A stretch of 64,000 nucleotides of DNA, taken from NCBI GenBank assembly GCA_934746515.1, contig CAKVFH010000002.1, positions 65,576 through 129,575 on the forward strand, in the 5' to 3' direction. The DNA comes from an uncultured Clostridia bacterium (lineage in GTDB: Bacteria; Bacillota; Clostridia; Christensenellales; UBA1242). The position numbers and the translations under genes are program-made. This document shows positions 1 through 44,631 of this stretch, piece after piece; within the stretch, counting starts at the first letter, position 1; each line of letters opens with the position of its first letter. The notes beneath the pieces were generated by a model, which had not been told where the DNA came from, made no database searches, and was given only the letters and a program-made list of their open reading frames with translations.

Positions 1-3000
1 GCTTCTTGTTTAGACATCTTGCTAACATCAGGAATTTCGGTAAGTTTGCCGTTTATGTTTTCCTTTGCAATAATATTTTGTTTTGCAGTTGAAACTATCT
101 TTTCACCATCAGTTTTCATTTCTCTGATGATGTTATCAAATTCTGTCTGATTCAAGTTGTTAAGAACTTTTCTGTTACTTGCTTGAGTTCTGAAATCTAC
201 TGGCATGTCAGTTATCTTTTTGTTTATGTCTTTCAATATATCTGAACCAGAAGAAATAAATCTTGAATAGTTGTTAAACAACCAGTTGTTTCTGTCAATT
301 TCACTAATATTGTCAAGTTCAGAACCATGGTTTTCAGCTTTATACAAAGCGCCAGCCTTTCCTTTGAACTCGTCATTATTCCAAATGAGTGAAGCAACTG
401 ATCTCTGACGCTCAAGTCCACCGTTTGCAATCATGTTTCTGTTTGCAACAGCAATTGCTTGAGCATAAGTCATGCTTTCTGCTTCTCTGTAAAGCTCACG
501 ATTATTTTCTTTGAATGAACTAATAACTTGTTGTTTTCTTTCAACTTCAGTTTTTGCTTCTTTACCTACACCGCTCTTTTCAACAGATTGAATTTGATCC
601 TTTGCTTTTGAGCTTAAATAGCTGTAAATGCCTTCAACAATTGCCTGTTGTTTTTCAGCTTCGGTTAACAATTGAACTTTCCCTGCAGCAGTTGAAATAA
701 CTTTTTCTGCGTTTTCACTATGTGAAGTTTGTTCAAGTTCTTTCTTAACTCTTTCGTTTGAAATAAGCATGCCTTGTTGTTGTTCATAAACTTCAGCACT
801 TTGTTTTGTTGTTGTTTGTTTTTGAAGAAGTGAATAAGCTTGTGAATCAGAAAGTCCGAGTTTTGCAGCATTCATAGCAAACAATGTTTCTGTGATTTCT
901 GAAATAAGTCTTTCTTTCAAAGCTTCGCCAGCTGGTGAATTTAAGAATTTAGAAATCAAATCCATTGAATTTATGTCAACATTGTTATTTTTAAGGATTC
1001 TTGTTGCACCAGTATCTTGAGCTGCAAGTTTTGCAAGAAGTGCATTTTGTTCAGCAATTGAAAGTGTCGCAAAACCATTTTGAGAAGTCTCTTGTTTGAG
1101 TTCCGCAAGTTGTTCTGCTGGAACAGTTTGTCTTAAGAACTCGGCAACTTGACTAGCATTTGTAAATCCTTGAGCTGTTGAGTTTAATTTAGAAATATCT
1201 CTTTCACCTGACAAGTATTGTGCTTTAAGATTATCAATAGCGCGTTCAGCGGTGGTGTTTGTAACTCCGCCAGCTTGCACACCTGATGTATAACCCATTG
1301 CCTGCAATTGCTTTTCAAGTGAAGCCTTTGTTTTGTTTGCTTTTTGCAAAGCTTCAAGCCTTTGAACTTTTGATGATTCTTCTTCAGCAAGTGCTGCTGT
1401 AATATTGATATTTTCAGCCTGTGTTTTACCAGTTTCGTCAAATGTGAAGTATTTTTTATTAACAGCATTTAAGAGTTTTTGATCAACCTTGATGCCTGCA
1501 GAATTTAAAATTTCTTTGTTTTGACCATTGCTATCAATGTATGCCTTCATTGCTTTTTCAGCAGCAACATTTGTGGCTTTGTCGCCACCTTCTTTGTAGC
1601 CGAACGACTCTTTAACTTGATTATACATTTCCGTTTGTTTTGATTTTGCACCAATCAATTCTTGAGCATCTTCGTCTGTCAAATTGCCATAGGCTTCATA
1701 ATCTTCAACAATAGATTGAACTTCAGGCGACTTCGATTTAACGCTTCCGAGTTTCGTGATATTTTCAAGAACACGTTCGTTTACTTGTTTGCCCTTTTCG
1801 CCGCCAGAAATATAAGCATCAATATTCTTATCAGTTTGCTTTCCAAGTATCTTGGCTTTTGAGTAGCCAACAACCACCGAAACAGCTTCATCACTAGACC
1901 AGTCAATATTCTGAATCTTATCTTGCCATGCTTTGTTCTGTTCATTTGAAATAATTTCATCAATAACGGCAGTATAACCCACTGAATCGGTATTCACTTT
2001 GCCATTTTCATGCTCGATTCCAACCGCATCCAAAACGAGTTGATTTGTGATTATATCTTTTTCTTGCTCGTTTGAATTTTGCATTATGGTTTTAACAAAT
2101 TCTTCGTTAGACAAAGACTTATTTGTTGTTTGAGAAAGAGCTGATGTTCTTGAATCGAGTTCTTGTGAGCGACGGTTTGCAAGTTCCCCAAGTTTTTCTG
2201 AAATATATTGTGGACTTGTTTTCTTAACTTGCGAAATATTCATTCCAGCTTCACCAAACATTCTGTTTATAAACATTTGATGTTCAGTGTTGCCATTTAT
2301 AAATTTATCTAATTCTGTGTTAAATTCCAAAGATGCGGAATCTTTTGAAAGAACTTTTGATTGAAGCTCAGAAAGCAACTGCTGTTCTCTTGCAATGTAA
2401 GCTTTGTTATTAGCAATGCCAAGAGAAACAAAAGCTTGTCCAACTTTTTCGCTATCTGATTTTGCCCTTAATTCAAGTTGCGCAACACCAGCTTTCGCTT
2501 GTTCAAATTTTTCTTTCTCTTTAGCTGAAAGTGTCTTGCCTTCGAGACCAACTTCAAGCTTGCTTAATTCAAAGTTTGCTTCACTAAATGCACTTTGAGA
2601 TCTAAAACTTTGAGTTTGTAATTTAGAGTATTTTGCAAAATTATCTTTTTCTTGTTGTGAAATTTCATTTACCAAATCAATTGGAGTATTTTTCATGATA
2701 GATTCAACAACAACAGTGTCTGCAGTGTTGTTTCTGATTGATGCAGAACTAAATTCTTGAGTCTTGCCTAAAATCTTTGCTTTAGCGTAAGCCACAAGGA
2801 CTTCTTCTGGATTATAAAGCGCTTTTTGAGTTAAGTCTGTAAATAATCTTCCGTTTTCGCTGTTTGGATTTGAATTGATTTCAGCAATAAGCTTTTTCGC
2901 TTCGTCTGAATTTATATCAACATTTCCATTTTCACCAAGAATATTGAAATATTTAGCAACAATTTTATTAACAATTTCATCCTTGTTTTCGGTTGACGAA

Positions 3001-6000
3001 TTCATGAATGCTGAAACAAGTTCTTTGTCTCCAAAACTTGCTTCAGAAAGTTGTCTTTCAGTTATTTGTTCTTGCTCTGTTCTTCCGTAAAGATTGCCTG
3101 TTGAAATTGCAGCAATATTTGCAGACAAGTGAGCTGAATAATCCATTTGTTGAGCTTTTGACAACAAATCAAATGCTTGAACTTTGAATGATCCATTTCC
3201 AACATGTTTTGCAGTTACAGCGGAAAGCTCTTTTGCATAATCTTGAGTCTTGATTTGTCCAAGCATAGAATTGCTATCTTTAACACCCTGCTTGATTGAT
3301 TCAAGAATAACATCATCTTTTGTGTCGTCTGTAATACGATATTGCGACTTAAACTCTTTAAGCTTTTCTGGATTATTTTGAAGGTAGAGATAAATTGCTT
3401 CTGCATTGATATCAGCATTGTTTTGTGCTCTATCAAACACAGTTTGATGATAATCACTACCTGTAATATTTCCAGTTGTTTCGTTTTGATAGTTAAGTGT
3501 AAGTGCATAGTTTCCGGCAATTGCTCGAGTTGTGTTGTTTTTGTAACCTGTTCTAACAATTGAATCCACAACAGCATCACTTGAAATGTCTTGATGTGAA
3601 AGAAGTTGAGCAATAGCAACATTTACGCTATCGTCTTTTGCACCTTTTCCGCGCACACTCATATCGTTTACGGTAAAGCCTAACCCCTTTGCACCAATTG
3701 ATATGCCAAGGTTCAAACCAAGACCATTTCTATCTGTGCTATTTTCAATAAGTCTAAGTTGGTCTTTAATTGACATGTTTGCATTTTCTTCAAGTTTTTG
3801 ATTGAATGTGTCAAGTTGTTCACTTGTCATCATTGACTTGTAAATTGCAATTTTTTGTTCATCTGAAATCAAATAGTTTGCGGCATCCAAATTATTAGTG
3901 CCCGTTGCTGTAGCAAATGATGAAAGAACATCAGCTGCAATAACTCTTCCGCCTGTTGTTCCCGACAAGTTTGCAACAGCATTTCTGTAAGCATCATTTG
4001 TGTTTGTGACAAAGTTTGAATCAGAAATTGCTTGATTATTTGCAATTTGAGCAGCAACTGCCATACGGTTTGCACCTTCAAGCATCAAGCCGTTTGCAAC
4101 AGCTTCATCAATCATTTGTTTGATGTTTGCTGGAAGTTGTGCATTATTTATAATTTGTTGTGTTTGTTCAGTTGAAACCACTTGACCAACACTTGGTCCA
4201 GTTGGAGCGGCTGAATAAGATTGGTAACCACCAACTTGCTGATTTCCAGCGTAAGATTGTCCTCCAACACGAGCGCCTGCAACTCTAACCTTTCTATTTT
4301 TAACAAATAGAGCACCGCCAACACCTGCAGCACCAAGTCCTGCAGCAAGTCCAACGCCGCCTATGCCGAGAGTTCCGGCAGTAAATGCAGCTATTCCGGC
4401 ACCTGCTGCAACTTTAAGAGCATTGCCGCCCCATTGCTTGATATATTGTGCTTTTGTTTGATCGTCTGCTGCTCTATATTTTCTAACAAGTCCGACACCT
4501 TTCTTTACTAGGTATGAACCAGCTAGAATTCCGCCAGCAGCAAGCACTCCAGTATTTGGAATTAACATTGCAGCACCAGCAGCCGCGCCAATCAAACCTT
4601 TAGCAATAACGCTGTTTCTTGCTTTCTTGATAGCAATTTTTCCTGCAGCAGCATTTCTTTGCTCTGATGTTAGTTTCCCAGCCATTGCATTTTGAACAGA
4701 CTTGAGCTTGTCACCTTTAAGCTTTTGCTCATCTTTTGTGACTTTGCCATTTTCATCAATTCTATTGATTGTCTGAATGACATTGCCTTTCTTATCTATT
4801 TTAAGATTATCAAAAGTCTGTCCGTCAGCTGTTGTAATTTTGCCATCTTCAAAGAATTGTTCATTCAATTTGGTTTCATCACCACTTTTGATAACATTCT
4901 TCAAAATTTCATTGTTGCTATATTCTGAAACACCATCATTTTTCAGACTTGCTTGATAAACTTCAGCTTGTGCTGCACCAGTTGCAGTAGTTCCACTTGG
5001 AGCAGTGAAAGGTTGAGCAAAACTTGGATTTCTTTCCGAAATTTGAAGTTGCCCTGCAGAAGATCTTCTAACCCTTCTTCTGCTTCTAGCAAACATAACA
5101 CCGCCAACACCTGCAGCACCAAGTCCTGCAGCAAGTCCAACACCGCCCATGCCGAGAGTTCCGACAGTAAAGGCCGCAATTCCAGCACCTGCTGCAACTT
5201 TCATCACTCTTCCGCCAAATCTTCTAATCATTTGGGCTTTTGTTTGATCATTTGCAGCTCTGTAGCGTTTAATTGCACCAGCACTCTTCTTTACTAGGAA
5301 TGAACCAGCCAAAATTCCGCCGGCAGCAAGAACTCCAACACCTGGAATTAACATTGCAATGCCAGCAGCCGCACCAATCAAGCCTTTAGCAATAATGCTG
5401 TTTTTTGCTTTCTTGATAGCAATCTTTCCTGCAGCTGAATTTCTTTGTGCTGATGTCAATTTTCCAGCCATTGCATTTTGAACAGACTTAAGCTCTTCAC
5501 CTTTAAGTTTTTTGCCGTCTTTCATAATATTGCCATTCTTAATTTCAAGGCCTTCAATTGTCTGTCCGTTCGCTGTTGTTATCTTGCCATCTTCAAAGAA
5601 TTGTTCATTCAATTTGGTTTCATCACCATTCTTGATAACATTCTTTAATATTGCACTATTACTATATTCTGAAACTGCATCTTGACCTGATTCAGCATTT
5701 CTTGCATTTGTTTGAGCTGCTTCAGCTTGTGCTGCACCAGTTGCAGTAGATCCTGCAGGAGCTGTCAAAGGTTGTCTCATTGTAGGGTTCATTTGTGCTA
5801 TTTGTAATTGACCCCTGCTAGCTTTTCTTGCCTTTAATTTATTAGCGGCAAATAGAACACCTCCAACAGCAGCTGCACCAAGCAAGCCACCAGTAAGCAC
5901 TCCACCTGCAGCAACTTTAAGAGCATTGCCGCCCCATTTTTTGATATATTGTGCTTTAGTTTGATCGTCTGCTGCTCTATATTTTTTAATAAGTCCTGCA

Positions 6001-9000
6001 CCTTTCTTTGCTAGGAACGAGCCACCTGCAATTGCAAGTGCAATTCCTGGTCCAATACCTGGGATAGCCAGCGAAACTGCAGCTGCAACACCAGCCAAAG
6101 CCTTTGCACCGAGACCGAGCAATGCATTTCGTTTTGCAATCTTACCTTCTGCTGTAGTTCTCTGATTGTCAGTAAGTTTTCCTGCCATTGCAGTTTGAAC
6201 AGCTTTGAGCTTGTCACCTTTAAGCTTTTGCTCATCTTTTGTGACTTTGCCATTTTCATCAATTCTATTGATTGTCTGAATGACATTGCCTTTCTTATCT
6301 ATTTTAAGATTATCAAAAGTCTGTCCGTCAGCTGTTGTAATTTTGCCATCTTCAAAGAATTGTTCATTGAGTTCATCTACATTGCCATTCTTGATAACAT
6401 TCTTTAATATTGCATTATCACTATAAGCAGATGCTCCAGCTTGTGCACCATTACCAGTTCCACCAGTTTGTGCGCCTTGACTTGCATCACCTTCAGCATT
6501 TCTTGAGTTTGCTTGAGCCGCAGCACCAGCAGCTGCACCAGTTGCAGTAGATCCTGCAGGAGCTGTCAAAGGTTGTCTCATTGCAGGGTTCATTTGAGAT
6601 ATTTGAAGTTGTCCCCTGCTAGCTTTTCTTGCCTTTAATTTATTAGCGGCAAATAGAACACCACCAACAGCAGCTGCACCAAGCAAGCCACCAGTAAGCA
6701 CTCCACCTGCAGCAACTTTAAGAGCATTGCCGCCCCATTTTTTGATATATTGTGCTTTAGTTTGATCGTCTGCTGCTCTATATTTTTTAACAAGTCCAAC
6801 GCCTTTCTTTGCTAGGAACGAGCCACCTGCAATTGCAAGTGCAATTCCTGGTCCAATACCTGGGATAGCCAACGAAACTGCAGCTGCAACACCAGCCAAA
6901 GCCTTTGCACCGAGGCCGAGCAATGCATTTCTTTTTGCAATCTTACCTTCTGCTGTGGTTCTCTGATTGTCAGTCAACTTTCCTGCCATTGCAGATTTAA
7001 CAGTTTGGAGATCTTTACCTTTAAGCTCTTTGCCGTCTTGCATGATCTTGCCGTTCTTAATTTCAAGATTTTCGAGAGTTTGTCCGTTTGCTGTTGTAAG
7101 CTTGCCGTTTTCAAAGAATTGTTCATTTAATTTAGTTTCATCACCATTTTTGATAACATTCTTTAATATTGCATTATCACTATAAGCGGATGCTCCAGCT
7201 TGTGCACCATTACCAGTTCCACCAGTTTGTGCGCCTTGACTTGCATCACCTTCAGCATTTCTTGAGTTTGCTTGAGCCGCAGCACCAGCAGCTGCACCAG
7301 TTGCAGTAGATCCTGCAGGAGCTGTCAAAGGTTGTCTCATTGCAGGGTTCATTTGAGCTAATTGCTGTTGTCCCTTATTAGCTTTTCTTACCTTTAGTTT
7401 ATTTGCAGCAAAAATTGTTCCACCAACCAAAGCCGCACCAAGAACACCACCGCCAAACACGAAGCCCGCACCAACTTTAAGTGCATTTCCACCCCATTTT
7501 TTAATGAGTTTAGCTCTTGTTTGATCGTCTGCTGCTCTATATTGTTTAATGAGTCCAACACCTTTCTTTGCTAGGAACGAGCCACCTGCGATAAGCACAC
7601 CAGCAAGTGGGCCACCAACTGCGGTTGCAATTGCAGCAGCTCCCAGAACGCCAGCTTTTCCAGCAAGTCCAAGAAGTGCACCTTTCTTTGAGCTTTGATC
7701 AAAACCTAACAAGCCATTTGCAACTTGACCGAACTTGCTATTTGCAAACCTATCAGGCAATGCGCTTGCTTCTTGAATACCAAATTTAACTCCAGCTTTC
7801 AATTTAGCATTTCTAACAGTTTTGTCATATTTCTTGGTTTGAGCGTCAACATTTCCTTCAGCAATTTCTTGGCTCTTATCAGACATAACTTTCAAAGCTT
7901 CTTTTCTTACTGCAAGACCTGTTCTTCCTTTCTCTTTCTGTTCTGCCATATAAGCATCATAATACTTTAATGCTGACTTTCCAGCTGCAGTGTTTTCAAG
8001 TTCTGCTTTAATCTTATCAGCATCTCCGTCACTTGAAAGGTTATTTATCTTACTCTTTAATTTTTCAGCATTTGCATCTGTTTTTTGTTTATCAGCTTCA
8101 GCATCGTCAAGACCCTTTCTAGAAACTTTTGCAATTTCTTCATTTTGCATTTCTTCAAGAGTTTTCTTTTTCTGTTCAACCTGTTCTTCAGTTCCATCTT
8201 TTATTTCATTTTCAACAGTCTGACCATTTTGGTTATAAGTTTGATTTACTGTTTCACCTGAACCACTATCTTTGCTATTATCAGACATATTAGAAATATC
8301 AGGATTTTGCTTTATGATATTTTCAAGTTCTTCTCTAGCAATTAGACGAATATGTTCATCGTCTGTACCAATGCCGCCTTGATATTCTTCACCATTATTA
8401 TCAACTTCATTTTCACCTGAAGCATTTACTGGTTCTTCCTCGGCATTTTCTCTGTTATTATTTTGAGACTCTTCACCAGTTCGCTGATTTTCTATGTTTG
8501 TCCTAGATTGACCTTCTGGGTTTTCATCCAATGGGCTCTTTGTTTCTTCAGCGGTTTGCCCATCTTTCTTTTCTTCATTTTCGTCTTTACCATTATCACG
8601 GCTGTTGCCTGCAGGTCTTCCACCAGCTGGGCCACCAGGACCACCAGAAGGACCACCACCACCGCCATCGGCGCCAGCAGCAGCACCAGCAGTTGATTCA
8701 ACACCTTCTTTAAATTTCTCGCCACCTTTCTTAACAGCACCAACAACTTTTTTGGCACCATCTATAATGAACTGCGAACCAGGGATAACACCCGGAGCCA
8801 TTGAAACGGCTTCTTTAAAGCCGCTTTTGAGTGATTTTCCGGAAATCATATCCGTTGCACTCTTCATTGTGGTTTTTACATTATTCTTGACAGCTGCACC
8901 GGTTTTATCCAAGCTTTGACCTTTTCCAACAAGACCCTGAACAAATCCAGGAAGCTCATTGATTAAAGTAAATGCAACAAGCAAGAACAAAATGTAAATA

Positions 9001-12000
9001 AGCTCATTGAGCATATTTGCAGTAATTGGCAATTTTTTCAAGAAATAACTTCCAGAATTTGCAATTGCTTCTTCTGTGAAAATAGTGCTTGAAATTTCTC
9101 TAATTGGTGCAAGTAAAACGAAGAATACATTCAGTCCTATCAAAACACCATAGGTTGAAAGCACTTCACCCATAATTTTTTCACGCAAATCGCCAAATCT
9201 TTTGCCATCATCAATAGGCATTGTTGAAGCCGCAACAGGCATTGCGAGATAGTAAAGCGTAATCATATAGAAACGCTTAATTACACCCCAAAGTGCAGAG
9301 AACAAAACTTTGATAATCAGCACTGAAGCAACTAACAACAGAACATAGTTGATTCCACTTGCTGCATAGAATGTTTGAAGTTTTATGTTTTGGTCAAAGA
9401 AATAGTCAAATGTGATACCAGAAACATTGCCAGAATATTTAAAGGTGCTTGAAACAACTGGTGTATCGCTAACCTGTTGAACCACACCTGTTTTAAATTC
9501 AAATATTCCCTTCCACAAATAAATGTTGATTTCTACCAAATAACATCCAAATGTGTTTCTTGAATAATTTTCAATTTGATATCTAAAACATGAAACAGAG
9601 TCTGAAGTTTGCGCGTTTTCATAAAACTCAAGCATTCTAGCTTCCGCACTTTTGAGTTTAACTTCAAGAGTGTTATTAAAGATACCTTTGGCAGTTTCAC
9701 TATCACCCGCAGTTTGGAATGCAGGTCTTGGAGTCATCTTACCTTCATTTTGAATATAGTAATATCTTGTTCCCCAGTTTGAATCAAAATATTTTGTACT
9801 TTTTAAAACATCAAAATTAAGATTATTTAATTGTGCTAAAACTGATTTTGTAAATGTTCCATAAAAATCTTCAGTGTTTTCAAAAATTGAGAATGTATTT
9901 TTTAAAATACTCTTTGCTTCATCTCCAATTTTGTAATCTTTGATTGTATAAGATTTCAAAACCAAATTTTTAGCTTCTTTTGACGCACTTCCGTTCAAAT
10001 AGCATGGATACAAACCTTTACTTGAGTTGTTATAAGTTTTTGATGTATCAACTTGCAAAACTCCATTCACTTCTTTTGTTTTGAAGTAACTCGATGTTCC
10101 ACTTACATAAATAACATAACAAAAACCTTTTTCAGCAGATGCGAATTGATAATATTTAGTACCACCAACAGTTTCGGTTACGCCAGTCCATTTTAATTTG
10201 TATTCACTTTTAAATGGAGAAGATGAAGATAGCGATATAACAATCTCTGATTCCTGCAAATCACTTGTTGAGTCAACATTAACTTTATAAGTTTTTATTT
10301 CTAAATCTCTTTCACCTTCAGCATACAAACTTCCATTGTTGTAGGTTGCCAAATAATTGCTTAATGCTGAATTATAAACAAGTCTTGTGTAATAATCATA
10401 AGTATTTAAAATTAAATCATTGCCATTTTCTTTAACATCATAATAATAACCGCCGTCTGTATCAGTAACAATTGAATCTTTGCCGTTATCAACTGAAGAA
10501 GTATTCTTTAAATATGTTGGGTTGCCATATCTAGCATCAACTGTATTTGTGTCAAATGTACCTTTTGCCCAAACAACACCCTTGTATTCGCTTGCATAAT
10601 AAACTGACTTAAAACAATAGTTTTTATTATCAATTCTAAAATCTTTGCCGTTTACAAGTGGATAGAAATATTCACTTCCTTTCAAGCAAACAATATATCT
10701 TGAACCTGCAAGTTCATCACCTGTGTTGAATTTTGCAGTATAGATAATATCGTTATCGCTTTCAGCTGGCAATGTATAGTTTCCTGCATATTTTGTAAGG
10801 AATGTAAGAACCTTTGAATCATCTTTAAGTGTTGTTGCAACATTACTTACTTGATTTGTTGCAATATTGTAAGATGATTTACCTAAATTACCGATATTTG
10901 GATTTGTTGGATCAGCAACCGTTCCACTTAATTTATTTGAAATCCACTTTGTGTCAACGCAATAACTTGCATCATTATTGCTAGCATCTTTATATTTGTA
11001 GTTCCAATCAATAAGTGGACTTGTTGCATCCATAATGTAGAATGTCAGGTTGTTATCGCACATATAATCAATAACATCAGCCATAACTGAATATTCAGCT
11101 TTTGACTGAACGTTACCAAATTGACCACCATCGAAGTATGAAGCAACTGACTGTGAATTATACATTATTGCACCAGAATAATTTGCAGCGCCAAGATTAA
11201 AATCTGCGAGAGATTGAGTTCCATAACTTGAAATAGCTTGAGATAAGCTGATGCCTGGATTTACGTAGATGAGAGAATAGTTCCAACTATTTCTGCAAAC
11301 AGTCCTAACAGTTTCACTTCCTTGGTGAATATTGACACTAGAAAGATAGGTTCCGTCATATAAAGCACTAAAGTTTGATTCAAGATTCTTCAAGAGTTCC
11401 TTGCCAACATCATCCGACGCCCAACTTGCATTTTTAGTTAAAATTTCCGCACCTAGAACGCATTTTAGATAATAGTAAATGCCTTCAGCTTTATCTGAAG
11501 ATGCCATAACAAAATAATATTGTTTTTTGTCATCTTTATCTTTAGCTCTAAAACAGAAACCATTAAAGTTTGTAATATCCTTTGGAACCAGCGGATCAAA
11601 AATTGAATCAATGGTTATTTTTCTTGCATTTTTTATGACAGAAAGATAACTTTTTCGTCCAGTAACAACTCCGTCATTACAACTATAATCTTGATAATAA
11701 ACATGAGTTTCGTCATCAATACCATCACCGAAACAGATTTGTCTGTGAGCATCATCAAGATAGAATGTTACTTTATCTGAAGTTGGATAATAGGTGTCAT
11801 TATCAACATAGTGTCTGTATTTGTTTGCAGACTGTGCAGAAACTGAAAAGATTTTTCCACCAAAAGTGTCAGACATATCAACACCAACAGCTTTGATAAT
11901 TGAAGCTAAAATTGCATTTGATGAAACAATGCCCATAACAAGCAAAATTGGAAATACAATAACAAGAGCAATTGCTTTTGCTGAAGATCTGAAAATTGAT

Positions 12001-12446
12001 GCTTTTGAATTTCCTTTACTTCCATCACCAGTCATATAGTCCCATTCACTTTTGATGATTGCATAAATTGTGAAAATGATAAGCAAAACAACAAACACTG
12101 CAATCAAAGCTCTGAATACTTTTTGAACCGAGTCAGCATACAAGAATTTAAAAATCATATCTTCTGAAGTTGCTTCAGACAATTTTCTTGCACCATCTTT
12201 GCTGGAATCAAGCCAATAATCAAGACCAATCAGCTTTTGAATGAAATATTGCAGAAAGTCCATAAATGCAAGGAACCATCTACAAATGAAATAGAAAAAG
12301 TTGGCAAGCCCTTCAAGAATTTTTTGGAAAAAGTGTCCAAAAATATAGCTTCCCAAACCCTTTTCTGTTGATGGTAAAATCATCGACAAGATAAAGTTTG
12401 ATACAAATGAATAAATTTTGCTGACCAATGGCATAAATTCCCCCAT
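1..12446 (-). CDS. Giant polytopic membrane protein, >=4148 aa; C-terminus lies beyond the window edge (partial)
   Basis: Manual minus-strand translation from ATG 12446 (or ATG 12434, preceded by GGGGGA) reads MGEFMPLVSKIYSFVSNF... through ...LTEIPDVSKMSKQE at nt 3 with no stop (4148 full codons). It is missing from the ORF track only because it has no in-window stop. Every listed minus-strand ORF in 1-12446 sits in one other frame. Hydrophobic helices at ~12300-11890 and ~9370-8880, plus Gly/Ala-rich hydrophobic repeats at 7720-4290. Confidence 0.85.
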   Translation of the reverse strand, partial: MGEFMPLVSKIYSFVSNFILSMILPSTEKGLGSYIFGHFFQKILEGLANFFYFICRWFLAFMDFLQYFIQKLIGLDYWLDSSKDGARKLSEATSEDMIFKFLYADSVQKVFRALIAVFVVLLIIFTIYAIIKSEWDYMTGDGSKGNSKASIFRSSAKAIALVIVFPILLVMGIVSSNAILASIIKAVGVDMSDTFGGKIFSVSAQSANKYRHYVDNDTYYPTSDKVTFYLDDAHRQICFGDGIDDETHVYYQDYSCNDGVVTGRKSYLSVIKNARKITIDSIFDPLVPKDITNFNGFCFRAKDKDDKKQYYFVMASSDKAEGIYYYLKCVLGAEILTKNASWASDDVGKELLKNLESNFSALYDGTYLSSVNIHQGSETVRTVCRNSWNYSLIYVNPGISLSQAISSYGTQSLADFNLGAANYSGAIMYNSQSVASYFDGGQFGNVQSKAEYSVMADVIDYMCDNNLTFYIMDATSPLIDWNYKYKDASNNDASYCVDTKWISNKLSGTVADPTNPNIGNLGKSSYNIATNQVSNVATTLKDDSKVLTFLTKYAGNYTLPAESDNDIIYTAKFNTGDELAGSRYIVCLKGSEYFYPLVNGKDFRIDNKNYCFKSVYYASEYKGVVWAKGTFDTNTVDARYGNPTYLKNTSSVDNGKDSIVTDTDGGYYYDVKENGNDLILNTYDYYTRLVYNSALSNYLATYNNGSLYAEGERDLEIKTYKVNVDSTSDLQESEIVISLSSSSPFKSEYKLKWTGVTETVGGTKYYQFASAEKGFCYVIYVSGTSSYFKTKEVNGVLQVDTSKTYNNSSKGLYPCYLNGSASKEAKNLVLKSYTIKDYKIGDEAKSILKNTFSIFENTEDFYGTFTKSVLAQLNNLNFDVLKSTKYFDSNWGTRYYYIQNEGKMTPRPAFQTAGDSETAKGIFNNTLEVKLKSAEARMLEFYENAQTSDSVSCFRYQIENYSRNTFGCYLVEINIYLWKGIFEFKTGVVQQVSDTPVVSSTFKYSGNVSGITFDYFFDQNIKLQTFYAASGINYVLLLVASVLIIKVLFSALWGVIKRFYMITLYYLAMPVAASTMPIDDGKRFGDLREKIMGEVLSTYGVLIGLNVFFVLLAPIREISSTIFTEEAIANSGSYFLKKLPITANMLNELIYILFLLVAFTLINELPGFVQGLVGKGQSLDKTGAAVKNNVKTTMKSATDMISGKSLKSGFKEAVSMAPGVIPGSQFIIDGAKKVVGAVKKGGEKFKEGVESTAGAAAGADGGGGGPSGGPGGPAGGRPAGNSRDNGKDENEEKKDGQTAEETKSPLDENPEGQSRTNIENQRTGEESQNNNRENAEEEPVNASGENEVDNNGEEYQGGIGTDDEHIRLIAREELENIIKQNPDISNMSDNSKDSGSGETVNQTYNQNGQTVENEIKDGTEEQVEQKKKTLEEMQNEEIAKVSRKGLDDAEADKQKTDANAEKLKSKINNLSSDGDADKIKAELENTAAGKSALKYYDAYMAEQKEKGRTGLAVRKEALKVMSDKSQEIAEGNVDAQTKKYDKTVRNAKLKAGVKFGIQEASALPDRFANSKFGQVANGLLGFDQSSKKGALLGLAGKAGVLGAAAIATAVGGPLAGVLIAGGSFLAKKGVGLIKQYRAADDQTRAKLIKKWGGNALKVGAGFVFGGGVLGAALVGGTIFAANKLKVRKANKGQQQLAQMNPAMRQPLTAPAGSTATGAAAGAAAQANSRNAEGDASQGAQTGGTGNGAQAGASAYSDNAILKNVIKNGDETKLNEQFFENGKLTTANGQTLENLEIKNGKIMQDGKELKGKDLQTVKSAMAGKLTDNQRTTAEGKIAKRNALLGLGAKALAGVAAAVSLAIPGIGPGIALAIAGGSFLAKKGVGLVKKYRAADDQTKAQYIKKWGGNALKVAAGGVLTGGLLGAAAVGGVLFAANKLKARKASRGQLQISQMNPAMRQPLTAPAGSTATGAAAGAAAQANSRNAEGDASQGAQTGGTGNGAQAGASAYSDNAILKNVIKNGNVDELNEQFFEDGKITTADGQTFDNLKIDKKGNVIQTINRIDENGKVTKDEQKLKGDKLKAVQTAMAGKLTDNQRTTAEGKIAKRNALLGLGAKALAGVAAAVSLAIPGIGPGIALAIAGGSFLAKKGAGLIKKYRAADDQTKAQYIKKWGGNALKVAAGGVLTGGLLGAAAVGGVLFAANKLKARKASRGQLQIAQMNPTMRQPLTAPAGSTATGAAQAEAAQTNARNAESGQDAVSEYSNSAILKNVIKNGDETKLNEQFFEDGKITTANGQTIEGLEIKNGNIMKDGKKLKGEELKSVQNAMAGKLTSAQRNSAAGKIAIKKAKNSIIAKGLIGAAAGIAMLIPGVGVLAAGGILAGSFLVKKSAGAIKRYRAANDQTKAQMIRRFGGRVMKVAAGAGIAAFTVGTLGMGGVGLAAGLGAAGVGGVMFARSRRRVRRSSAGQLQISERNPSFAQPFTAPSGTTATGAAQAEVYQASLKNDGVSEYSNNEILKNVIKSGDETKLNEQFFEDGKITTADGQTFDNLKIDKKGNVIQTINRIDENGKVTKDEQKLKGDKLKSVQNAMAGKLTSEQRNAAAGKIAIKKARNSVIAKGLIGAAAGAAMLIPNTGVLAAGGILAGSYLVKKGVGLVRKYRAADDQTKAQYIKQWGGNALKVAAGAGIAAFTAGTLGIGGVGLAAGLGAAGVGGALFVKNRKVRVAGARVGGQSYAGNQQVGGYQSYSAAPTGPSVGQVVSTEQTQQIINNAQLPANIKQMIDEAVANGLMLEGANRMAVAAQIANNQAISDSNFVTNTNDAYRNAVANLSGTTGGRVIAADVLSSFATATGTNNLDAANYLISDEQKIAIYKSMMTSEQLDTFNQKLEENANMSIKDQLRLIENSTDRNGLGLNLGISIGAKGLGFTVNDMSVRGKGAKDDSVNVAIAQLLSHQDISSDAVVDSIVRTGYKNNTTRAIAGNYALTLNYQNETTGNITGSDYHQTVFDRAQNNADINAEAIYLYLQNNPEKLKEFKSQYRITDDTKDDVILESIKQGVKDSNSMLGQIKTQDYAKELSAVTAKHVGNGSFKVQAFDLLSKAQQMDYSAHLSANIAAISTGNLYGRTEQEQITERQLSEASFGDKELVSAFMNSSTENKDEIVNKIVAKYFNILGENGNVDINSDEAKKLIAEINSNPNSENGRLFTDLTQKALYNPEEVLVAYAKAKILGKTQEFSSASIRNNTADTVVVESIMKNTPIDLVNEISQQEKDNFAKYSKLQTQSFRSQSAFSEANFELSKLEVGLEGKTLSAKEKEKFEQAKAGVAQLELRAKSDSEKVGQAFVSLGIANNKAYIAREQQLLSELQSKVLSKDSASLEFNTELDKFINGNTEHQMFINRMFGEAGMNISQVKKTSPQYISEKLGELANRRSQELDSRTSALSQTTNKSLSNEEFVKTIMQNSNEQEKDIITNQLVLDAVGIEHENGKVNTDSVGYTAVIDEIISNEQNKAWQDKIQNIDWSSDEAVSVVVGYSKAKILGKQTDKNIDAYISGGEKGKQVNERVLENITKLGSVKSKSPEVQSIVEDYEAYGNLTDEDAQELIGAKSKQTEMYNQVKESFGYKEGGDKATNVAAEKAMKAYIDSNGQNKEILNSAGIKVDQKLLNAVNKKYFTFDETGKTQAENINITAALAEEESSKVQRLEALQKANKTKASLEKQLQAMGYTSGVQAGGVTNTTAERAIDNLKAQYLSGERDISKLNSTAQGFTNASQVAEFLRQTVPAEQLAELKQETSQNGFATLSIAEQNALLAKLAAQDTGATRILKNNNVDINSMDLISKFLNSPAGEALKERLISEITETLFAMNAAKLGLSDSQAYSLLQKQTTTKQSAEVYEQQQGMLISNERVKKELEQTSHSENAEKVISTAAGKVQLLTEAEKQQAIVEGIYSYLSSKAKDQIQSVEKSGVGKEAKTEVERKQQVISSFKENNRELYREAESMTYAQAIAVANRNMIANGGLERQRSVASLIWNNDEFKGKAGALYKAENHGSELDNISEIDRNNWLFNNYSRFISSGSDILKDINKKITDMPVDFRTQASNRKVLNNLNQTEFDNIIREMKTDGEKIVSTAKQNIIAKENINGKLTEIPDVSKMSKQE
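4290..7720. repeat. Intragenic tandem repeat array, ~5 modules with a 717-801 bp period, containing near-identical DNA blocks
   Basis: The AMAGKLT-encoding landmark recurs at ~4680, 5464, 6181 and 6982. Near-identical blocks: 4680-4870 vs 6183-6373, 5740-6193 vs 6541-6994, and 6391-6598 vs 7150-7357 (the last with about 1 mismatch). The duplicated antisense peptides in the ORF track (4692.. and 6195..) show the same thing. Confidence 0.9.
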
Positions 12447-12630
12447 TTATTTCTCTTGATTATTGTCTGCAATATTTGCAATATCTTTTGCATTTAGACA
12501 AAATCTGCGAAAAATATATATAATTATAATAAACCATAATTATTATAACATAAGGCATCAAAATATGACAAATAATTTACCGCAGATTTACAAATTATTT
12601 TATTATTTTTTTAGATTTTTTTTATTAAAA

Positions 12631-12662
12631 CAAATATCATACCCTTAAGGGTATGATATTTG
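12631..12662. promoter_or_regulatory. 32-bp perfect palindrome in the AT-rich leader of the giant ORF (operator or attenuator hairpin candidate)
   Basis: CAAATATCATACCCTT/AAGGGTATGATATTTG is perfectly self-complementary. It lies ~185 bp upstream of the ORF start. In minus orientation it is followed by TTTTAAT. Confidence 0.6.
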
Positions 12663-13047
12663 AAAATTTATTTTTATGATTTTATAATCATTTTTTACTA
12701 CTGTTTTTTAGCATTAAATTTTGTATTGATTTTTACCGCTCCGTTTCAGAATTTAAAATTAAAAATTTAAAAAAGTTTATACAATATAACCAAAACTTTG
12801 ACAGTTTTGATAATAAAAAACTCTTTCTAAACTGCAGCAAAATTGTAAAAATAACACGAAATAACCATAAAAATTACAATTAAAAATATCGGCAATTTGC
12901 ATAAAAAAGACTAAAATCACCAATCGAAAATATGTGTTTTTTTAATTTAATTTATTACTTAATTTTTCATTTTTAAGCTATATATCTTTACATTTCACAA
13001 CAACAATTTATCTAAAAAATCAAATAAGCAAAATTAACATAATAATA

Positions 13048-13083
13048 AGCAAAATAAAAAGAGAAGTTTCTTCACTTCTCTCT
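13048..13083 (-). terminator. Rho-independent terminator (second of two) after the pilin-like gene
   Basis: Stem GAGAAGT/ACTTCTC (13061-13080), followed on the minus strand by TTTTTATTTT. Confidence 0.65.
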
Positions 13084-13107
13084 TTATTGTTCTATTGATA
13101 AACTCAA

Positions 13108-13140
13108 AAAAATGCAAAATAAAAACACGCTTGCGCGTGT
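13108..13140 (-). terminator. Rho-independent terminator directly after the 13155 gene
   Basis: Stem ACACGC/GCGTGT (13125-13140), followed on the minus strand by TTTTATTTTG. It begins 15 nt after the stop codon. Confidence 0.7.
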
Positions 13141-13154
13141 CTTTATTTTTTTTC

Positions 13155-13487
13155 TTATTTAAGTTGGTCGCCAAACAATTTTTTAACAGCGCCACCATTA
13201 AGAACTGCAGCAATTACGGCTACGAAAACAATTGCAACCAAGAAACCAATAATGATATTGATAAGTTGTGTTTTTGCTTTCTTTTTGCCTTCATCATCTT
13301 CAGCTTTAGCAAAAGCAATACCTACTTTAACACCTAAAACTACGCCAAGAACAAGCAAGAAAGATGCAATTACAGGTAAAACTACGTTAACAATACCTTT
13401 GAATGTATTGTAAGCTGAATTGAAGATATCGCCTGTTGCTGAAATAACTACAGTATCATCAGCTAATAAAGAAAATAAATCTAACAT
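13155..13487 (-). CDS. Small 2-TM protein, VirB2/TrbC-type pilin-like (paralog 1)
   Basis: 110 aa. Two hydrophobic helices are joined by the charged loop GIAFAKAEDDEGKKKAKTQL, then IIIGFLVAIVFVAV. This is the TM / short charged loop / Gly-containing TM pattern of Gram-positive TrbC/VirB2-like proteins. RBS GGAGAAA precedes the ATG. Confidence 0.45.
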   Translation of the reverse strand: MLDLFSLLADDTVVISATGDIFNSAYNTFKGIVNVVLPVIASFLLVLGVVLGVKVGIAFAKAEDDEGKKKAKTQLINIIIGFLVAIVFVAVIAAVLNGGAVKKLFGDQLK

Positions 13488-14190: not shown

Positions 14191-16149
14191 ATGTCTGATA
14201 AGAAAAAATCTTTTGGTGAAGTCATTGGAAATTTCATATTTTGGCTGATAGTATTTGCGGTTGGAAGCTATATCGCTGGAATTATTATTGCAAAATATTT
14301 ATTTGGTACAGATTGGTCTTTTAATTCACAAGAGACTTTAACTGCAACATTTATTATATTTTCAGTTTCATTTCTGTTTTATTTGCTTCGCGACAAAAAA
14401 GACGATGTTTCATTCAAAGGTCAAAAAGATATGGAAAATCAGCACTTTGCTTCGCTTTCAGAGCTTGACAAGAATTTTAAGCATTGCAAATTTTCACAGC
14501 TTAAAAATGAAAACATAGTCGGTGTGCCATTTAGATTTGAACTTAAACATGGCGATTTAAACATTCACTTTACTCCACCATGCCACGTTTTAATTGTCGG
14601 TGCTTCTGGTACTGGTAAAACTGCATGCTGGGTTGAACCAACAATGCAAATCTTGACAGAACTAAAAAACAAGCCATCACTTTTTATTACTGACCCTAAA
14701 GGCGAAATTTTCGCGCACCATAGTTTAAAAATGAAAAATCAGGGCTACACTGTTTTACAACTCGATTTAACTCAACCTTATGCAAGCAAGCGTTGGAATC
14801 CACTTGAAAATATTTATGAACAATGGCAAAAAAGAAAGCACATGGAAGAAAATATTTTAAAGCACACCAACGATCCAATCAAAAACTACCCTAACCTTTT
14901 GAAAGCTGGCGATATCAACTCTGCCGAATGGTATGAGTTTATGGGCAAAGCATTTAACACACTTCGTGAAACTCTCATTGAAGTTGATGTTGAAAAACAA
15001 AAAATTAAAGACGATTGTTTGGAAAGTTTGCAAGATATTGCAGGTGCTATTGTTCCAACCGATCCTGATCCAAAGAACAAACAATGGTCTGATGGTGCAA
15101 GAGACTATTTCGAAGCCTGCATGATTGCAATGCTTGAAGATAGTGAAAATGACGCACTTGACATGACAAAAGAAAAATATAATTTCTTTAACGCATACAA
15201 AATTGCAATTAACAAAGATGATGACTATGCTGTTGTTAAAGATTATTTTTCAGGTCGTGACCCACTTTCAAAAGCAAAAGAACTTTCAACAAACATTGTT
15301 CAAACCAAAGCACAAGTTACTCGTGATGGTTATATGTCAACACTGCTCACAAATCTTGCATTGTTCTCTGATAATGGTATCTGTTTCATGACTTCAGCAA
15401 ACGATATTCGTTTCACTGAATTTGATGACAGACCAACCGCATTCTTTATCAAAATTCCTGATGAAAGAGCAACAAGATACAAACTTGCTTCTGTTTGTAT
15501 TTCACAATCCTACAAAGAGTTCGTTCAAAAATCTCGTGCAAATGAACTTGTGAACGATGATAAAATGGCACACTTAAAGCGCCCACTCTTCTATATTCTT
15601 GATGAGTTTGCCAATATGCCAAAAATTGAAGGTTTAAACAGAATTATCACCGTTGCCAGATCAAGATGGATTTATCTTAACATGGCAATTCAGTCTTATT
15701 CGCAGCTTGATGATGTTTACGGCAAAGAAGTTGCCGAAATCGTTCGTGGTCAGTGCCGTTCAACACTTTTCTATGGAACTCCTGACCTTAAAACTCGTGA
15801 AGAGTTTTCAAAAGAACTTGGAAATCACACCATTAAAGTTGATAGCAAAACTAAAAATGAAGGCGATGGAAAAACAAAAGGAACAACTTCAACATCAACA
15901 TCTCTTCAACAAGTTCCACTCATTCACCCATCAGAACTCGACAAATTGCCACTTGGACAAAACATCACAAACAACTTCCAGCAATATCCTTGCAAAGCTG
16001 TTGCAACACCATATTTTAAGTGCTTAAACATATTCAAAATAGGAGCCGTTCCAACAGAATTCATCCCTGGAAGAACATTCAAAGAAAGCGAAGTTTTCTA
16101 CGATATTAGAAAGAGAAACAGCATCGTTCTTGAAAATAATGAAGACTAA
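14191..16149 (+). CDS. Type IV secretion coupling protein (VirD4/TraG/ConQ-type T4CP ATPase)
   Basis: N-terminal TM hairpin. HVLIVGASGTGKT (Walker A) is followed by SLFITDPKGEIF. LFYILDEFANMP is the Walker B. Length 652 aa is typical of the family. Confidence 0.85.
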   Translation: MSDKKKSFGEVIGNFIFWLIVFAVGSYIAGIIIAKYLFGTDWSFNSQETLTATFIIFSVSFLFYLLRDKKDDVSFKGQKDMENQHFASLSELDKNFKHCKFSQLKNENIVGVPFRFELKHGDLNIHFTPPCHVLIVGASGTGKTACWVEPTMQILTELKNKPSLFITDPKGEIFAHHSLKMKNQGYTVLQLDLTQPYASKRWNPLENIYEQWQKRKHMEENILKHTNDPIKNYPNLLKAGDINSAEWYEFMGKAFNTLRETLIEVDVEKQKIKDDCLESLQDIAGAIVPTDPDPKNKQWSDGARDYFEACMIAMLEDSENDALDMTKEKYNFFNAYKIAINKDDDYAVVKDYFSGRDPLSKAKELSTNIVQTKAQVTRDGYMSTLLTNLALFSDNGICFMTSANDIRFTEFDDRPTAFFIKIPDERATRYKLASVCISQSYKEFVQKSRANELVNDDKMAHLKRPLFYILDEFANMPKIEGLNRIITVARSRWIYLNMAIQSYSQLDDVYGKEVAEIVRGQCRSTLFYGTPDLKTREEFSKELGNHTIKVDSKTKNEGDGKTKGTTSTSTSLQQVPLIHPSELDKLPLGQNITNNFQQYPCKAVATPYFKCLNIFKIGAVPTEFIPGRTFKESEVFYDIRKRNSIVLENNED

Positions 16150-16174
16150 AAATTAAATTACATTGGAGATAAGT

Positions 16175-35416: not shown

Positions 35417-36505
35417 TTATAATTCACTTTCAATTGTTTTTTGAAATGAATATGGCTTAAATTCAAAATTAAATCCCGTAAATTTTGAACGCTTTAAATT
35501 TTTATATTGCTCTACTTCTTCCTTACAAGAATTATCTATATCAGTTATTCTTGCAACTTTTTCGTCTAATCTAACAAGTGGAACTATATATCTTTTTTTA
35601 CCTTTCACACTTATACAATATTTATCAGTTGCAGGTTTCTCTCCAGCATAAATATTAGTTGCACCAACAAATTGTATAAAGCTTTGTTTTAGATATTCAT
35701 CTTCACAATTTAAAATTAAATTGCAAACATCATCTTCAGACATTTTATACAAATCATCAATACTAATAAAGCCCCTAACATTCATACTTTTCACAATATC
35801 TGCAAAAAATTGCATAACCGTTCTATTCTCATCACTATCATAATGAGCAAAAATTGGAAGAATATTGTGCAAAAATTCTTTACCAATTTCTTTTGTATTA
35901 AACCCCAATTCGTCAATGCCTTCTTCATTTTTCAAAATGGAAATATCATTATAATACTTTGAAATTTCATCTAAATTCCAAGCACCATACGAAAATAATC
36001 CATTTGAAAGAGTATATTCAAATCTATCTGCACTTAATTGTGGGGTCTTGTTGTCAGCAATTGGGTATATGTGATAATCACTTATTTCTTCTACTTTAAT
36101 ATTATCACGATTTAATAAGCTCATTATTTTTTTTGAATTTCTAATTATTTGTTCTGTTCTTTCTTCCGTTGATTCCTGATTTTGGGAATCTCCATTCATA
36201 AAATCAATGCAGTGTTTAAATGATGGAGTTGCTATATCGTGAAAAAGACCTGCAATGGCTTGTTTTTTGTTATGTGTAAAATTCCAAATGATTAAGGCAA
36301 CACCAACACTGTGATCTAATACTGAATTATATGAAAGATAATTATACAATTTTGAATAGTCCGTTCCACAAAGCATACTAATTCCAGATAATCTGCTCAT
36401 TTCTTCTGTATCAATGTAATCGAACAACCATTCAGGAAAAGTTGGTGATAAAATTTCAAAATACTTCTTCCTAAAATCATCTAAATTTTTATAATATTCA
36501 TTCAT
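35417..36505 (-). CDS. HD-domain phosphohydrolase (SAMHD1/dGTPase-like motif pattern)
   Basis: Motifs SRLSGISML...DHSVGVA...GLFHDIATPSFKH...SADRFEY. Confidence 0.6.
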   Translation of the reverse strand: MNEYYKNLDDFRKKYFEILSPTFPEWLFDYIDTEEMSRLSGISMLCGTDYSKLYNYLSYNSVLDHSVGVALIIWNFTHNKKQAIAGLFHDIATPSFKHCIDFMNGDSQNQESTEERTEQIIRNSKKIMSLLNRDNIKVEEISDYHIYPIADNKTPQLSADRFEYTLSNGLFSYGAWNLDEISKYYNDISILKNEEGIDELGFNTKEIGKEFLHNILPIFAHYDSDENRTVMQFFADIVKSMNVRGFISIDDLYKMSEDDVCNLILNCEDEYLKQSFIQFVGATNIYAGEKPATDKYCISVKGKKRYIVPLVRLDEKVARITDIDNSCKEEVEQYKNLKRSKFTGFNFEFKPYSFQKTIESEL

Positions 36506-44605: not shown

Positions 44606-44631
44606 AAGTTTTTCCTTTTTATTTATTTCCA

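Follow-up and report, generated by a model that had tools for sequence, protein, structure and literature searches.

A giant gene beside type IV secretion genes in an uncultured gut Clostridia bacterium: a probable extended VirB6-type membrane protein

The DNA analysed here (64,000 nucleotides (nt), hereafter the window; contig CAKVFH010000002.1 of assembly GCA_934746515.1, positions 65,576 to 129,575, from an uncultured Clostridia bacterium of the Christensenellales) is ordinary bacterial chromosome of ~33% GC, with genes for PFOR, PFL, PyrG and HtrA. Its left end is taken up by a single minus-strand gene, here called giant1, which lies beside genes of a type IV secretion system (T4SS) and runs out of the window. 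We describe this gene, its protein and its neighbours, and consider what the protein may do.

The giant reading frame and its layout

Translation of the giant1 frame (window 3-12446, minus strand) gave 4,148 codons and no stop, while the other five frames across 1-12446 contained 168-460 stops, and giant1 is therefore not a chance open reading frame (ORF). A first, sequence-only reading of the window had noticed this unbroken frame, which reaches nt 3, and had attributed its absence from the ORF list to the want of a stop inside the window; this was correct, as the frame runs past the left end. Of the two start codons then proposed, ATG 12434 is probably the true one, since both the orthologue P0001 and the family consensus begin with MxxV (MPLV in giant1) and a five-G run sits 5 nt upstream of it; ATG 12446 is kept as an alternative only. 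P0001, 98% identical to giant1 and encoded on a 1.17-Mb contig (ERZ27287382 k141_236978), is 4,572 amino acids (aa) in length, so that ~430 C-terminal residues of giant1 fall outside the window and its true end is predicted ~1.3 kb past the edge. The leftward extension called for by the sequence-only reading was thus supplied by the orthologous contig.

The ratio of non-synonymous to synonymous substitution rates (dN/dS) between giant1 and its orthologue (locus L007) was 0.07-0.15 in each of seven regions, repeats (0.15) and helical tail included, and 0.12 overall. The locus recurs in at least seven independent human-gut assemblies or contigs. Given the unbroken frame, the low dN/dS and this recurrence, giant1 is, by all sequence comparisons made, a translated gene under purifying selection, and neither a pseudogene nor a chimera. 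The claim of one continuous, very large polytopic membrane protein therefore holds, and the stop or frameshift inside 1-12446 that would have spoken against it was found neither in the window nor in the independent 1.17-Mb contig. Apparent splits of giant1 into several ORFs in two other loci (L001, 2930-3029; L008, around 14440) coincide with runs of N in the repeat region and are thus assembly gaps, not frameshifts. The Gly-zipper repeats are evidently hard for short-read assemblers, as the gaps in these two loci illustrate.

The gene and its segments, all on the minus strand, are as follows (TM, transmembrane; K+R, lysine plus arginine; AF2, AlphaFold2).

3..12434, minus: giant1 coding sequence (partial), probable extended VirB6-like T4SS membrane protein; likely start ATG 12434, alternative 12446
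11799..12338, minus: N-terminal half of the predicted VirB6-like (MMCAP2_0566) membrane domain, aa ~37-216; three strong TM helices
9414..11798, minus: insert in the membrane domain, ~800 aa (aa ~217-1011), predicted extracytoplasmic from composition, AF2 and flanking K+R
8907..9413, minus: C-terminal half of the predicted VirB6-like membrane domain, aa 1012-1180; three TM helices and a W1053-G-x-x-x-R1058 motif
7737..8906, minus: Lys/Gly-rich juxtamembrane tail, Gly/Pro hinge and acidic, low-complexity or coiled region, aa 1181-1570; predicted start of the cytoplasmic extension
4257..7736, minus: five tandem modules, aa 1571-2730, seen as DNA repeats
3..4256, minus: helical C-terminal region, aa 2731-4148 (to aa 4572 in the orthologue), with AF2 helical domains

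The N-terminal cluster comprises three strong hydrophobic helices (aa 47-65, 113-131 and 158-176) and a weak one (aa 6-24), in agreement with the three to four TM helices first called; this membrane half is the most conserved part of the family. The following region, initially described as ~830 aa, containing Tyr, Asn and Cys and probably extracytoplasmic, has 10% S, 9% Y and 8% N over aa ~200-1010 and holds 13 of the 14 Cys of giant1; low K+R at both flanks likewise predicts it to lie outside. AF2 secondary structure for this insert is alpha/beta and then beta-rich, with a predicted local distance difference test score (pLDDT) of about 70-85 in many blocks. The second cluster has only three to four hydrophobic segments (aa 1035-1053, 1059-1078, 1095-1113 and 1144-1162; nt 9344-8961), not the four to five of the initial count. 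Past it, the expected Gly/Pro hinge (GGGGGPSGGPGGPAGGRPAG) was placed at nt 8607-8666. The stretch thought to be acidic with coiled coil is acidic (65 D+E versus 44 K+R in aa 1276-1570), while the coil is noted here as low-complexity or coiled sequence.

The five Gly/Ala-zipper modules, also present in the first description, are seen as DNA repeats at nt 4292-7638 with a period of 717-801 nt and a DNA identity of 60-94%. Within each module, two Gly/Ala-zipper hydrophobic segments, bordered on both sides by basic stretches, precede a Pro/Ala/Thr linker, and a small beta domain follows. With Kyte-Doolittle values of 1.5-2.1, these segments fall short of the hydrophobicity of the true TM helices (2.0-3.2). 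The long tail was rightly taken as helical for more than 1,400 aa within the window: AF2 confidently modelled helical domains at aa ~2751-3134 (pLDDT 80-92) and aa ~3264-3439, and the tail sequence contains no TM segment and no sorting signal. Neither Pfam nor NCBIfam placed a catalytic domain in giant1, consistent with the earlier failure to recognize a catalytic signature.

A split VirB6-like membrane domain

The membrane domain of giant1 matched NF045848 (MMCAP2_0566 family conjugal transfer protein) with 91.3 bits (curated cut-off 90, E 6.7e-26), which places it as VirB6-like and gives the protein the family identity that had been missing from the sequence-only reading. Two stretches were matched, the best (aa 1012-1180) corresponding to profile positions 165-319 of 322. 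NF045889, which describes the Mbov_0396 TM protein of integrative and conjugative elements (ICEs), scored 48.7 bits, below its cut-off of 70, and giant1 is not assigned to that equivalog. In related loci, paralogues cover the N-terminal part of NF045848 (positions 2-182) with their aa ~42-233. A Candidatus Onthoplasma homologue of 815 aa covers positions 5-321 without interruption, and the N-terminus of a second paralogue, giant2 (see below), is 26-34% identical to that of giant1. By virtue of the paralogue matches, the contiguous Onthoplasma match and the homology of the giant1 N-terminal bundle, the two TM clusters are, on this sequence evidence, the halves of one VirB6-like membrane domain, which the ~800-aa region interrupts as an insert.

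Residue W1053, which never varies in the family, belongs to a W-G-x-x-x-R motif located where TM4 is predicted to meet the cytoplasm. VirB6 has a conserved Trp in its central cytoplasmic loop (PMC7648143), and W1053 may or may not correspond in position to this Trp of Agrobacterium tumefaciens VirB6. The CDS16 protein of Mycoplasma ICEs has been named the likely VirB6 of that system (PMC12857230). 'Extended VirB6' proteins are defined by five or more hydrophobic helices and by additional hydrophilic domains, central or C-proximal, whose role is not understood (PMC12857230), a definition that giant1 fits with its central ~800-aa insert and its ~3,400-aa C-terminal extension. It also shows the canonical TrbL/VirB6 layout, being polytopic, with six predicted TM helices and a large TM3-TM4 insert predicted outside.

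Loop K+R densities (medians over 32 homologues) alternate along the membrane domain: 0.09 in loop TM1-TM2 (implied out), 0.21 in loop TM2-TM3 (in), 0.03 and 0.07 at the two insert flanks (out), 0.13 in loop TM4-TM5 (in), 0.07 in loop TM5-TM6 (out) and 0.15 in the C-terminal tail (in). Read by the positive-inside rule, this alternation predicts a domain of six TM helices whose N-terminus lies inside and whose insert lies outside, and an extension that starts in the cytoplasm. Strongly basic stretches border every zipper segment on either side (9 K/R versus 2 D/E in the linker between segments), for which reason re-entrant or peripheral insertion from one face is favoured over true spans.

An AF2 model of the core (aa 36-1235, alignment of 26 sequences) reached a pLDDT of 67 and a predicted template modelling (pTM) score of 0.60. 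It comprises three helices of 35-40 residues, a shorter helix, the alpha/beta plus beta-rich insert and three to four long helices, with pLDDT <50 from aa ~1190 onward. A second model (aa 2290-3489) had a pLDDT of 61; within it the small beta domain between modules was predicted with pLDDT ~78, and the zipper segments (~24) were not modelled. A phmmer search of PDB sequences with the 4,572-aa orthologue found nothing, and Pfam and PHROGs returned only noise for giant1 beyond the NCBIfam match.

Giants of this VirB6-like family are common. A full HMMER scan of 1.84 billion representatives with giant1 aa 5-1204 detected 1,506 proteins at E up to 1e-3 (i.e. ~1,500 cluster representatives) and 846 at E up to 1e-10. 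The 194 members retrieved have a median length of 2,590 aa and a maximum of 7,309 aa, 44 of them being at least 4,000 aa in length; family members from Ca. Onthoplasma have 736-815 aa. The remark that a gene of this size is unusual for a compact genome is fair, but such genes are the rule in this lineage, where two to three stand in tandem. Conservation is concentrated in aa 10-675 and 940-1250; aa 2600-3250 and 3760-4148 form weaker islands, and the extension changes fast from one species to the next. The Gly-zipper modules are accessory: five copies are found in giant1 and P0001, three in a 91%-identical strain (P0002), three of different sequence in some relatives and none in many others.

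Neighbouring secretion genes and their place in the chromosome

Pilin-like genes and a VirD4 gene stand immediately upstream of giant1, a T4SS context that the sequence-only reading had missed. The genes on the far side of giant1 lie just past the window's left end and are given from the orthologous contig (L007).

12542..12571, minus: promoter-like site (TTGTCA, 18 nt, TG-TATAAT) lying ~100 nt ahead of giant1; agrees with the consensus at 11 of 12 positions, a consensus match only
13053..13149, minus: two terminator-like hairpins after pilin-like gene B, separating the pilin-like genes from giant1
13155..13487, minus: pilin-like protein B, VirB2/T4SS_pilin-type, 110 aa, two TM helices; matches NF045849 and PF18895
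13598..13897, minus: pilin-like protein A, paralogue of B, 99 aa, two TM helices; NF045849 E 7e-5
14191..16149, plus: VirD4-like type IV coupling ATPase, divergently transcribed, with N-terminal TM helices; matches NF045973 and Pfam
16163..18304, plus: unk713, 713 aa, co-oriented with VirD4, described from sequence features
L007, 23762-26107: unk781, a 781-aa Lys/Glu-rich soluble coiled-coil protein between giant1 and VirB4
L007, 26195-28885: VirB4, 896 aa, matching the VirB4_plasma (Mbov_0397) model
L007, 28909-33719: giant2, second VirB6-like paralogue after VirB4, called product 3,689 aa

Pilin-like protein B matched NF045849 (Mbov_0395 pilin-like; E 1.3e-9, 37.6 bits, cut-off 40) and PF18895 (T4SS_pilin; 22.8 bits, cut-off 26.6), and pilin-like protein A is kept at the same position in all related loci. 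The VirD4-like protein belongs by its best match to NF045973 (CD1115 family; 251 bits, cut-off 250) and also matches PF02534, PF10412 and PF12696. VirB4 aligns end to end with the Mycoplasma VirB4_plasma/Mbov_0397 model (566 bits, equivalog cut-off 590), and its two N-terminal TM helices (aa 24-42 and 45-63) suggest that it may be a VirB3-VirB4 fusion. Both ATPases have intact Walker A and Walker B motifs. The pilin-like/TM protein/VirB4/VirD4 neighbourhood of the Mycoplasma ICE module is thus present, with one extra gene (unk781) between giant1 and VirB4. Beyond its N-terminal bundle, giant2 continues as a long stretch rich in Tyr, Asn and Trp, in which a motif of the form D/N-S-x-T-W-T-x-x-D/Q-x-x-I/L-I-Y-E/L-Y recurs, and in related species a third VirB6-like paralogue (944-1,314 aa) comes next.

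Two further proteins accompany the recognizable components. In the first, unk713, a ~650-aa ectodomain rich in Asn, Thr and Tyr lies between a signal or TM segment and a TM anchor at the C-terminus; the protein is conserved beside VirD4 in all related loci (24-52% identity). Profile scans and phmmer against PDB sequences found no family or PDB match for it, and from its layout it is a candidate surface protein, adhesin or wall-spanning partner. The gene is probably co-transcribed with VirD4. The second, unk781, is conserved at 26-67% identity, with no family match and an empty phmmer search of PDB sequences. A 321-aa coiled-coil protein is encoded upstream of the short VirB6-like gene in Ca. 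Onthoplasma (L044, 7776-8741).

Terminator-like sites numbered 8 versus 0.6 expected. The intergenic region between pilin-like gene B and giant1 (12447-13154) is unusually long (~700 nt) and AT-rich. Three terminator-like hairpins lie in it, one of them a perfect 14-bp palindrome (12631-12662), as do several promoter-like sites; the region matched no Rfam family.

When one genome for each GTDB species was scanned, 39 loci turned up, all in uncultured 'Clostridia bacterium' metagenome-assembled genomes (MAGs) from human, ruminant, deer and rabbit guts and in Ca. Onthoplasma (Christensenellales in the NCBI taxonomy). The order holA-M28-murI-unk713-VirD4-pilinA-pilinB-giant1-unk781-VirB4-giant2 is kept in ~15 species-representative genomes. 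In these species, identity to the window protein is 29-53% for murI, 28-57% for the M28 peptidase, 42-84% for holA and 52-92% for VirD4, and VirB4 identity is 50-83%; VirB4 and VirD4 are thus more conserved across species than the adjoining housekeeping genes. VirD4 identity tracks housekeeping identity (Spearman 0.68-0.82, n=11). The near end of the locus is fixed beside murI-rpsT-holA-comEC and the far end abuts fba, gap, mnmA, trpS and proS. Linkage of the giant to VirB4 and VirD4 is invariant across ~30 loci, with two to three paralogues bracketing VirB4. Profile scans detected no integrase and no relaxase among the locus genes or at either end, and the giant1 core was encoded on none of 72,556 PLSDB plasmids, where the best VirB4s (Spiroplasma, Mycoplasma, B. 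thuringiensis) were 28-32% identical. Because of the fixed position, the divergence that tracks host genes, the lack of integrase and relaxase in the locus and the lack of plasmid carriage, the locus is, on this comparative sequence evidence, a vertically inherited chromosomal system and not an ICE.

Elsewhere in the window, ComEC is apparently split into a 'Competence' channel-domain gene beside holA (23017-24573, minus) and a separate 436-aa gene 15 kb away (39438-40748, minus), the latter matching the metallo-beta-lactamase part of ComEC (profile positions 439-527). Four ORFs of 362-477 aa (27111-28544, 35417-36505, 38208-39395 and 45769-47055, all minus) had no NCBIfam match at E up to 1e-10. 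Other features were:

44671-44760, minus: SAM (S-adenosylmethionine; S-box) riboswitch, directly upstream of metK
43517-44647, minus: metK
62743-63107: tmRNA
56417-56505: tRNA-Ser(CGA)

Probable role of the giant protein, and its rivals

We consider it probable that giant1 is the first of two or three tandem extended-VirB6-type subunits of a conjugation-derived T4SS that is fixed and vertically inherited in these low-GC (~33%) gut Clostridia. In the solved T4SS of R388, a VirB6 pentamer forms the central stalk above VirB4 (PMC12857230), and by analogy with such structures the membrane domain of giant1 would form the translocon or stalk. The outward insert would carry this stalk further, across the Gram-positive wall, and might serve the pilin-like proteins as a platform; the two or three paralogues would build a composite structure. 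The ~3,400-aa extension would begin in the cytoplasm, its five zipper modules serving as re-entrant or peripheral membrane anchors, and the helical domains without known fold would provide the base of the machine with a large scaffold that docks substrates or ATPases; alternatively, the extension could be fed through the channel, as in Anaplasma. Most likely, the system passes DNA or protein to another cell on contact, and does so within the normal biology of the organism. The retained VirD4 makes both DNA and protein substrates possible, and self-transfer of a mobile element is unlikely to be its role.

Several observations weigh against this assignment. The tie of giant1 to canonical VirB6 is indirect: TrbL/VirB6 (Pfam PF04610) gave no match to giant1 at E up to 1, and a family-profile search of PDB sequences found no relative, be it a VirB6, TrwI or DotA chain. 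The AF2 core model is only moderate (pLDDT 67), and Foldseek of both AF2 models against PDB and BFVD gave no match at E <0.03, with all TM-scores <0.1; a viral-metagenome protein annotated as TrbL/VirB6 appeared only at E 0.35 (monomer model, pLDDT 67). The predicted topology is drawn solely from the positive-inside rule. The matches of the pilin-like proteins fall just below curated cut-offs, and their Mycoplasma counterparts are described as VirB3-like in the literature. A VirB1-like hydrolase and a VirB8-like protein were not recognized at the locus, although murI suggests a walled organism. A relaxase may also be encoded elsewhere in the genome, in which case DNA transfer would be possible. 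Finally, trypsin reaches the C-terminal repeats of VirB6-3 and VirB6-4 on intact Anaplasma cells, contrary to a classical topology with the C-terminus inside (PMC7648143).

This last observation is also the starting point of the best-surviving rival, in which giant1 is the same T4SS subunit but its extension is exported and displayed at the surface or delivered to a target cell, the zipper modules inserting in the target membrane, in line with proposals made for Anaplasma VirB6-3 and VirB6-4. The Anaplasma repeats vary in copy number between strains (PMC7648143), as do the modules here (five versus three), and the extension diverges fast between species; moreover, the zipper segments stay behind the true TM helices in hydrophobicity (1.5-2.1 versus 2.0-3.2), and such low hydrophobicity has been described in translocated TM effectors (PMC12981334). 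Against export, the positive-inside pattern places the start of the tail in the cytoplasm and every zipper segment is basic on both flanks. The repeats also have a dN/dS of 0.15 with no diversifying signal, many family members lack the zipper modules, and no cleavage site or secretion signal was found. On balance we regard export as unlikely, if a serious competitor.

Two other readings fare far worse, and we give each of them very little credence. If giant1 were a conjugation protein of an ICE or plasmid integrated at the locus and serving the element's self-transfer, this would suit the origin of all recognizable components in conjugation-type families, the nearest named families being those of Mycoplasma ICEs, and the retention of the VirD4 coupling protein. 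Such an element is very hard to reconcile with an identical position and flanks in species whose housekeeping proteins are 30-50% identical, with divergence that follows the host genes, with VirB4 and VirD4 better conserved than the adjoining housekeeping genes, with the lack of integrase or relaxase in the locus or at its ends, and with a core found on 0/72,556 plasmids. It is just as improbable that giant1 is a giant membrane-anchored adhesin or envelope protein lying near T4SS genes by chance, its family match reflecting generic polytopic composition. Giant surface proteins are common in gut Firmicutes (e.g. the unrelated Hodor megaplasmid giants), ~85% of giant1 has no recognizable family and there is no canonical VirB6 match in Pfam or by structure; but the NCBIfam match lies above its curated cut-off (E 7e-26) and is collinear in both halves, the order pilin-like protein, TM protein, VirB4 mirrors Mbov_0395, 0396 and 0397, and the VirB4/VirD4 linkage is invariant in ~30 loci, with two to three paralogues bracketing VirB4. 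A pseudogene, assembly chimera or non-translated ORF deserves practically no belief, since its one support, repeats that are hard to assemble and scaffold gaps inside them in L001 and L008, is outweighed by a frame unbroken in the window and in the independent 1.17-Mb contig, a dN/dS of ~0.12 throughout and ~1,500 homologous cluster representatives.

Three further candidates were rejected outright. Neither PHROGs nor BFVD supported a phage tape-measure-like protein; the TANB77 'conserved pilin' cluster (PMC11680825) is a Tad/Flp pilus with CpaF and TadE, and unrelated; and the Hodor megaplasmid giants carry S-layer/MBG domains and signal peptides, and are likewise unrelated.

The closest analogue of the giant1 system is found in the extended VirB6 arrays of the Rickettsiales rvh system (Anaplasma VirB6-1 to VirB6-4). 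Anaplasma phagocytophilum has four tandem virB6 genes after virB3-virB4 and 8-15 virB2 copies, and its VirB6-4 has 4,322 or 9,935 aa with strain-variable 3' repeats (PMC7648143). In both cases the T4SS is chromosomal and vertically inherited with the relaxase not in the locus, the VirB6 paralogues stand in tandem beside VirB4, VirB2-like genes are duplicated, an enormous C-terminal extension carries strain-variable tandem repeats, and similarity to classical VirB6 is limited to the TM core. Giant VirB6 proteins are therefore not unprecedented, and the pattern is here repeated in a monoderm Bacillota. Rickettsiales, however, are diderm Alphaproteobacteria with P-type VirB8-11, whereas the parts found here resemble those of Mycoplasma ICEs; there is no detectable sequence similarity between the giants, giant1 adds the ~800-aa mid-domain insert and the Gly-zipper modules, and its host belongs to a gut commensal MAG lineage and not to the obligate intracellular pathogens.

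By sequence the nearest relatives are the Mycoplasma ICEs, whose conjugation module consists of CDS15, CDS16, CDS17 and CDS5 (Mbov_0395, Mbov_0396/MMCAP2_0566, the Mbov_0397 VirB4 and VirD4, respectively; PMC6030558, PMC12857230). Transfer of the M. agalactiae ICE requires CDS15, 16, 17, 19 and 5. It is the families of these elements that the membrane domain (above cut-off), VirB4 (over its full length) and the pilin-like proteins match best; the elements also share the gene order and, like the present locus, have no recognizable VirB1 or VirB8. In contrast, their proteins are of ~300 aa and belong to mobile ICEs with a DDE transposase in wall-less hosts, while giant1 is 15 times larger and sits in a chromosomally fixed locus of a host with peptidoglycan genes.

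F-plasmid TraG also combines a polytopic VirB6-like N-terminal domain with extra hydrophilic domains. Gram-positive VirB6 homologues of the MPF_FA type are extended to 700-900 aa (PMC12857230), a size range that includes the Ca. Onthoplasma members (736-815 aa), and they share the architecture of a polytopic VirB6-like N-terminal domain plus hydrophilic domains. Unlike giant1, the MPF_FA VirB6/TraG proteins are plasmid- or ICE-borne, 5-6 times smaller and without sequence match, mid-domain insert or tandem paralogues. The T4SS of Patescibacteria (PMC12102498; PMC12857230) resembles the present one as a conjugation-derived monoderm system retained vertically across a reduced-genome lineage, with VirB2-like pilin genes and no evidence for self-transfer of an element. 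It differs in belonging to another phylum, in having recognizable VirB1, VirB3 and VirB8 homologues and in that its essentiality has been shown experimentally, and no giant VirB6 is reported for it in PMC12102498 or PMC12857230.

Among the papers found by literature search, none describes the present system. Nearly all known Gram-positive T4SSs are conjugation machines, and VirB2-type pilins are unknown in them outside Patescibacteria (PMC12857230). If the assignment of giant1 to the extended VirB6 type is right, the locus adds to these a vertically inherited T4SS, with no relaxase detected in the locus and with pilin-like genes, in prevalent human and animal gut Clostridia. Its giants would be the largest VirB6-type proteins yet seen in monoderms. 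They would also show, independently of Rickettsiales, a second instance in which VirB6 gigantism goes together with fixation of the machine in the chromosome. The family would also provide an annotation for ~1,500 clusters of 'hypothetical' giant proteins, and a natural size series from 736 to ~7,300 aa in which the roles of the extension could be dissected.

More speculatively, and with considerable doubt, we suggest that the lineage may depend on a domesticated T4SS for contact with a bacterial partner or host cell, in which giant VirB6 pentamers (two to three paralogues) would be the wall-spanning conduit and the extension a novel type of either cytoplasmic basket or translocated membrane-inserting module. 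Were this so, Bacillota would have their own equivalent of the Patescibacteria epibiont T4SS and of the rvh system of Rickettsiales, and the system would be the first lineage-wide non-conjugative T4SS in classical Gram-positive bacteria. The locus may point to an unrecognized cell-cell interaction system in this uncultured gut lineage.

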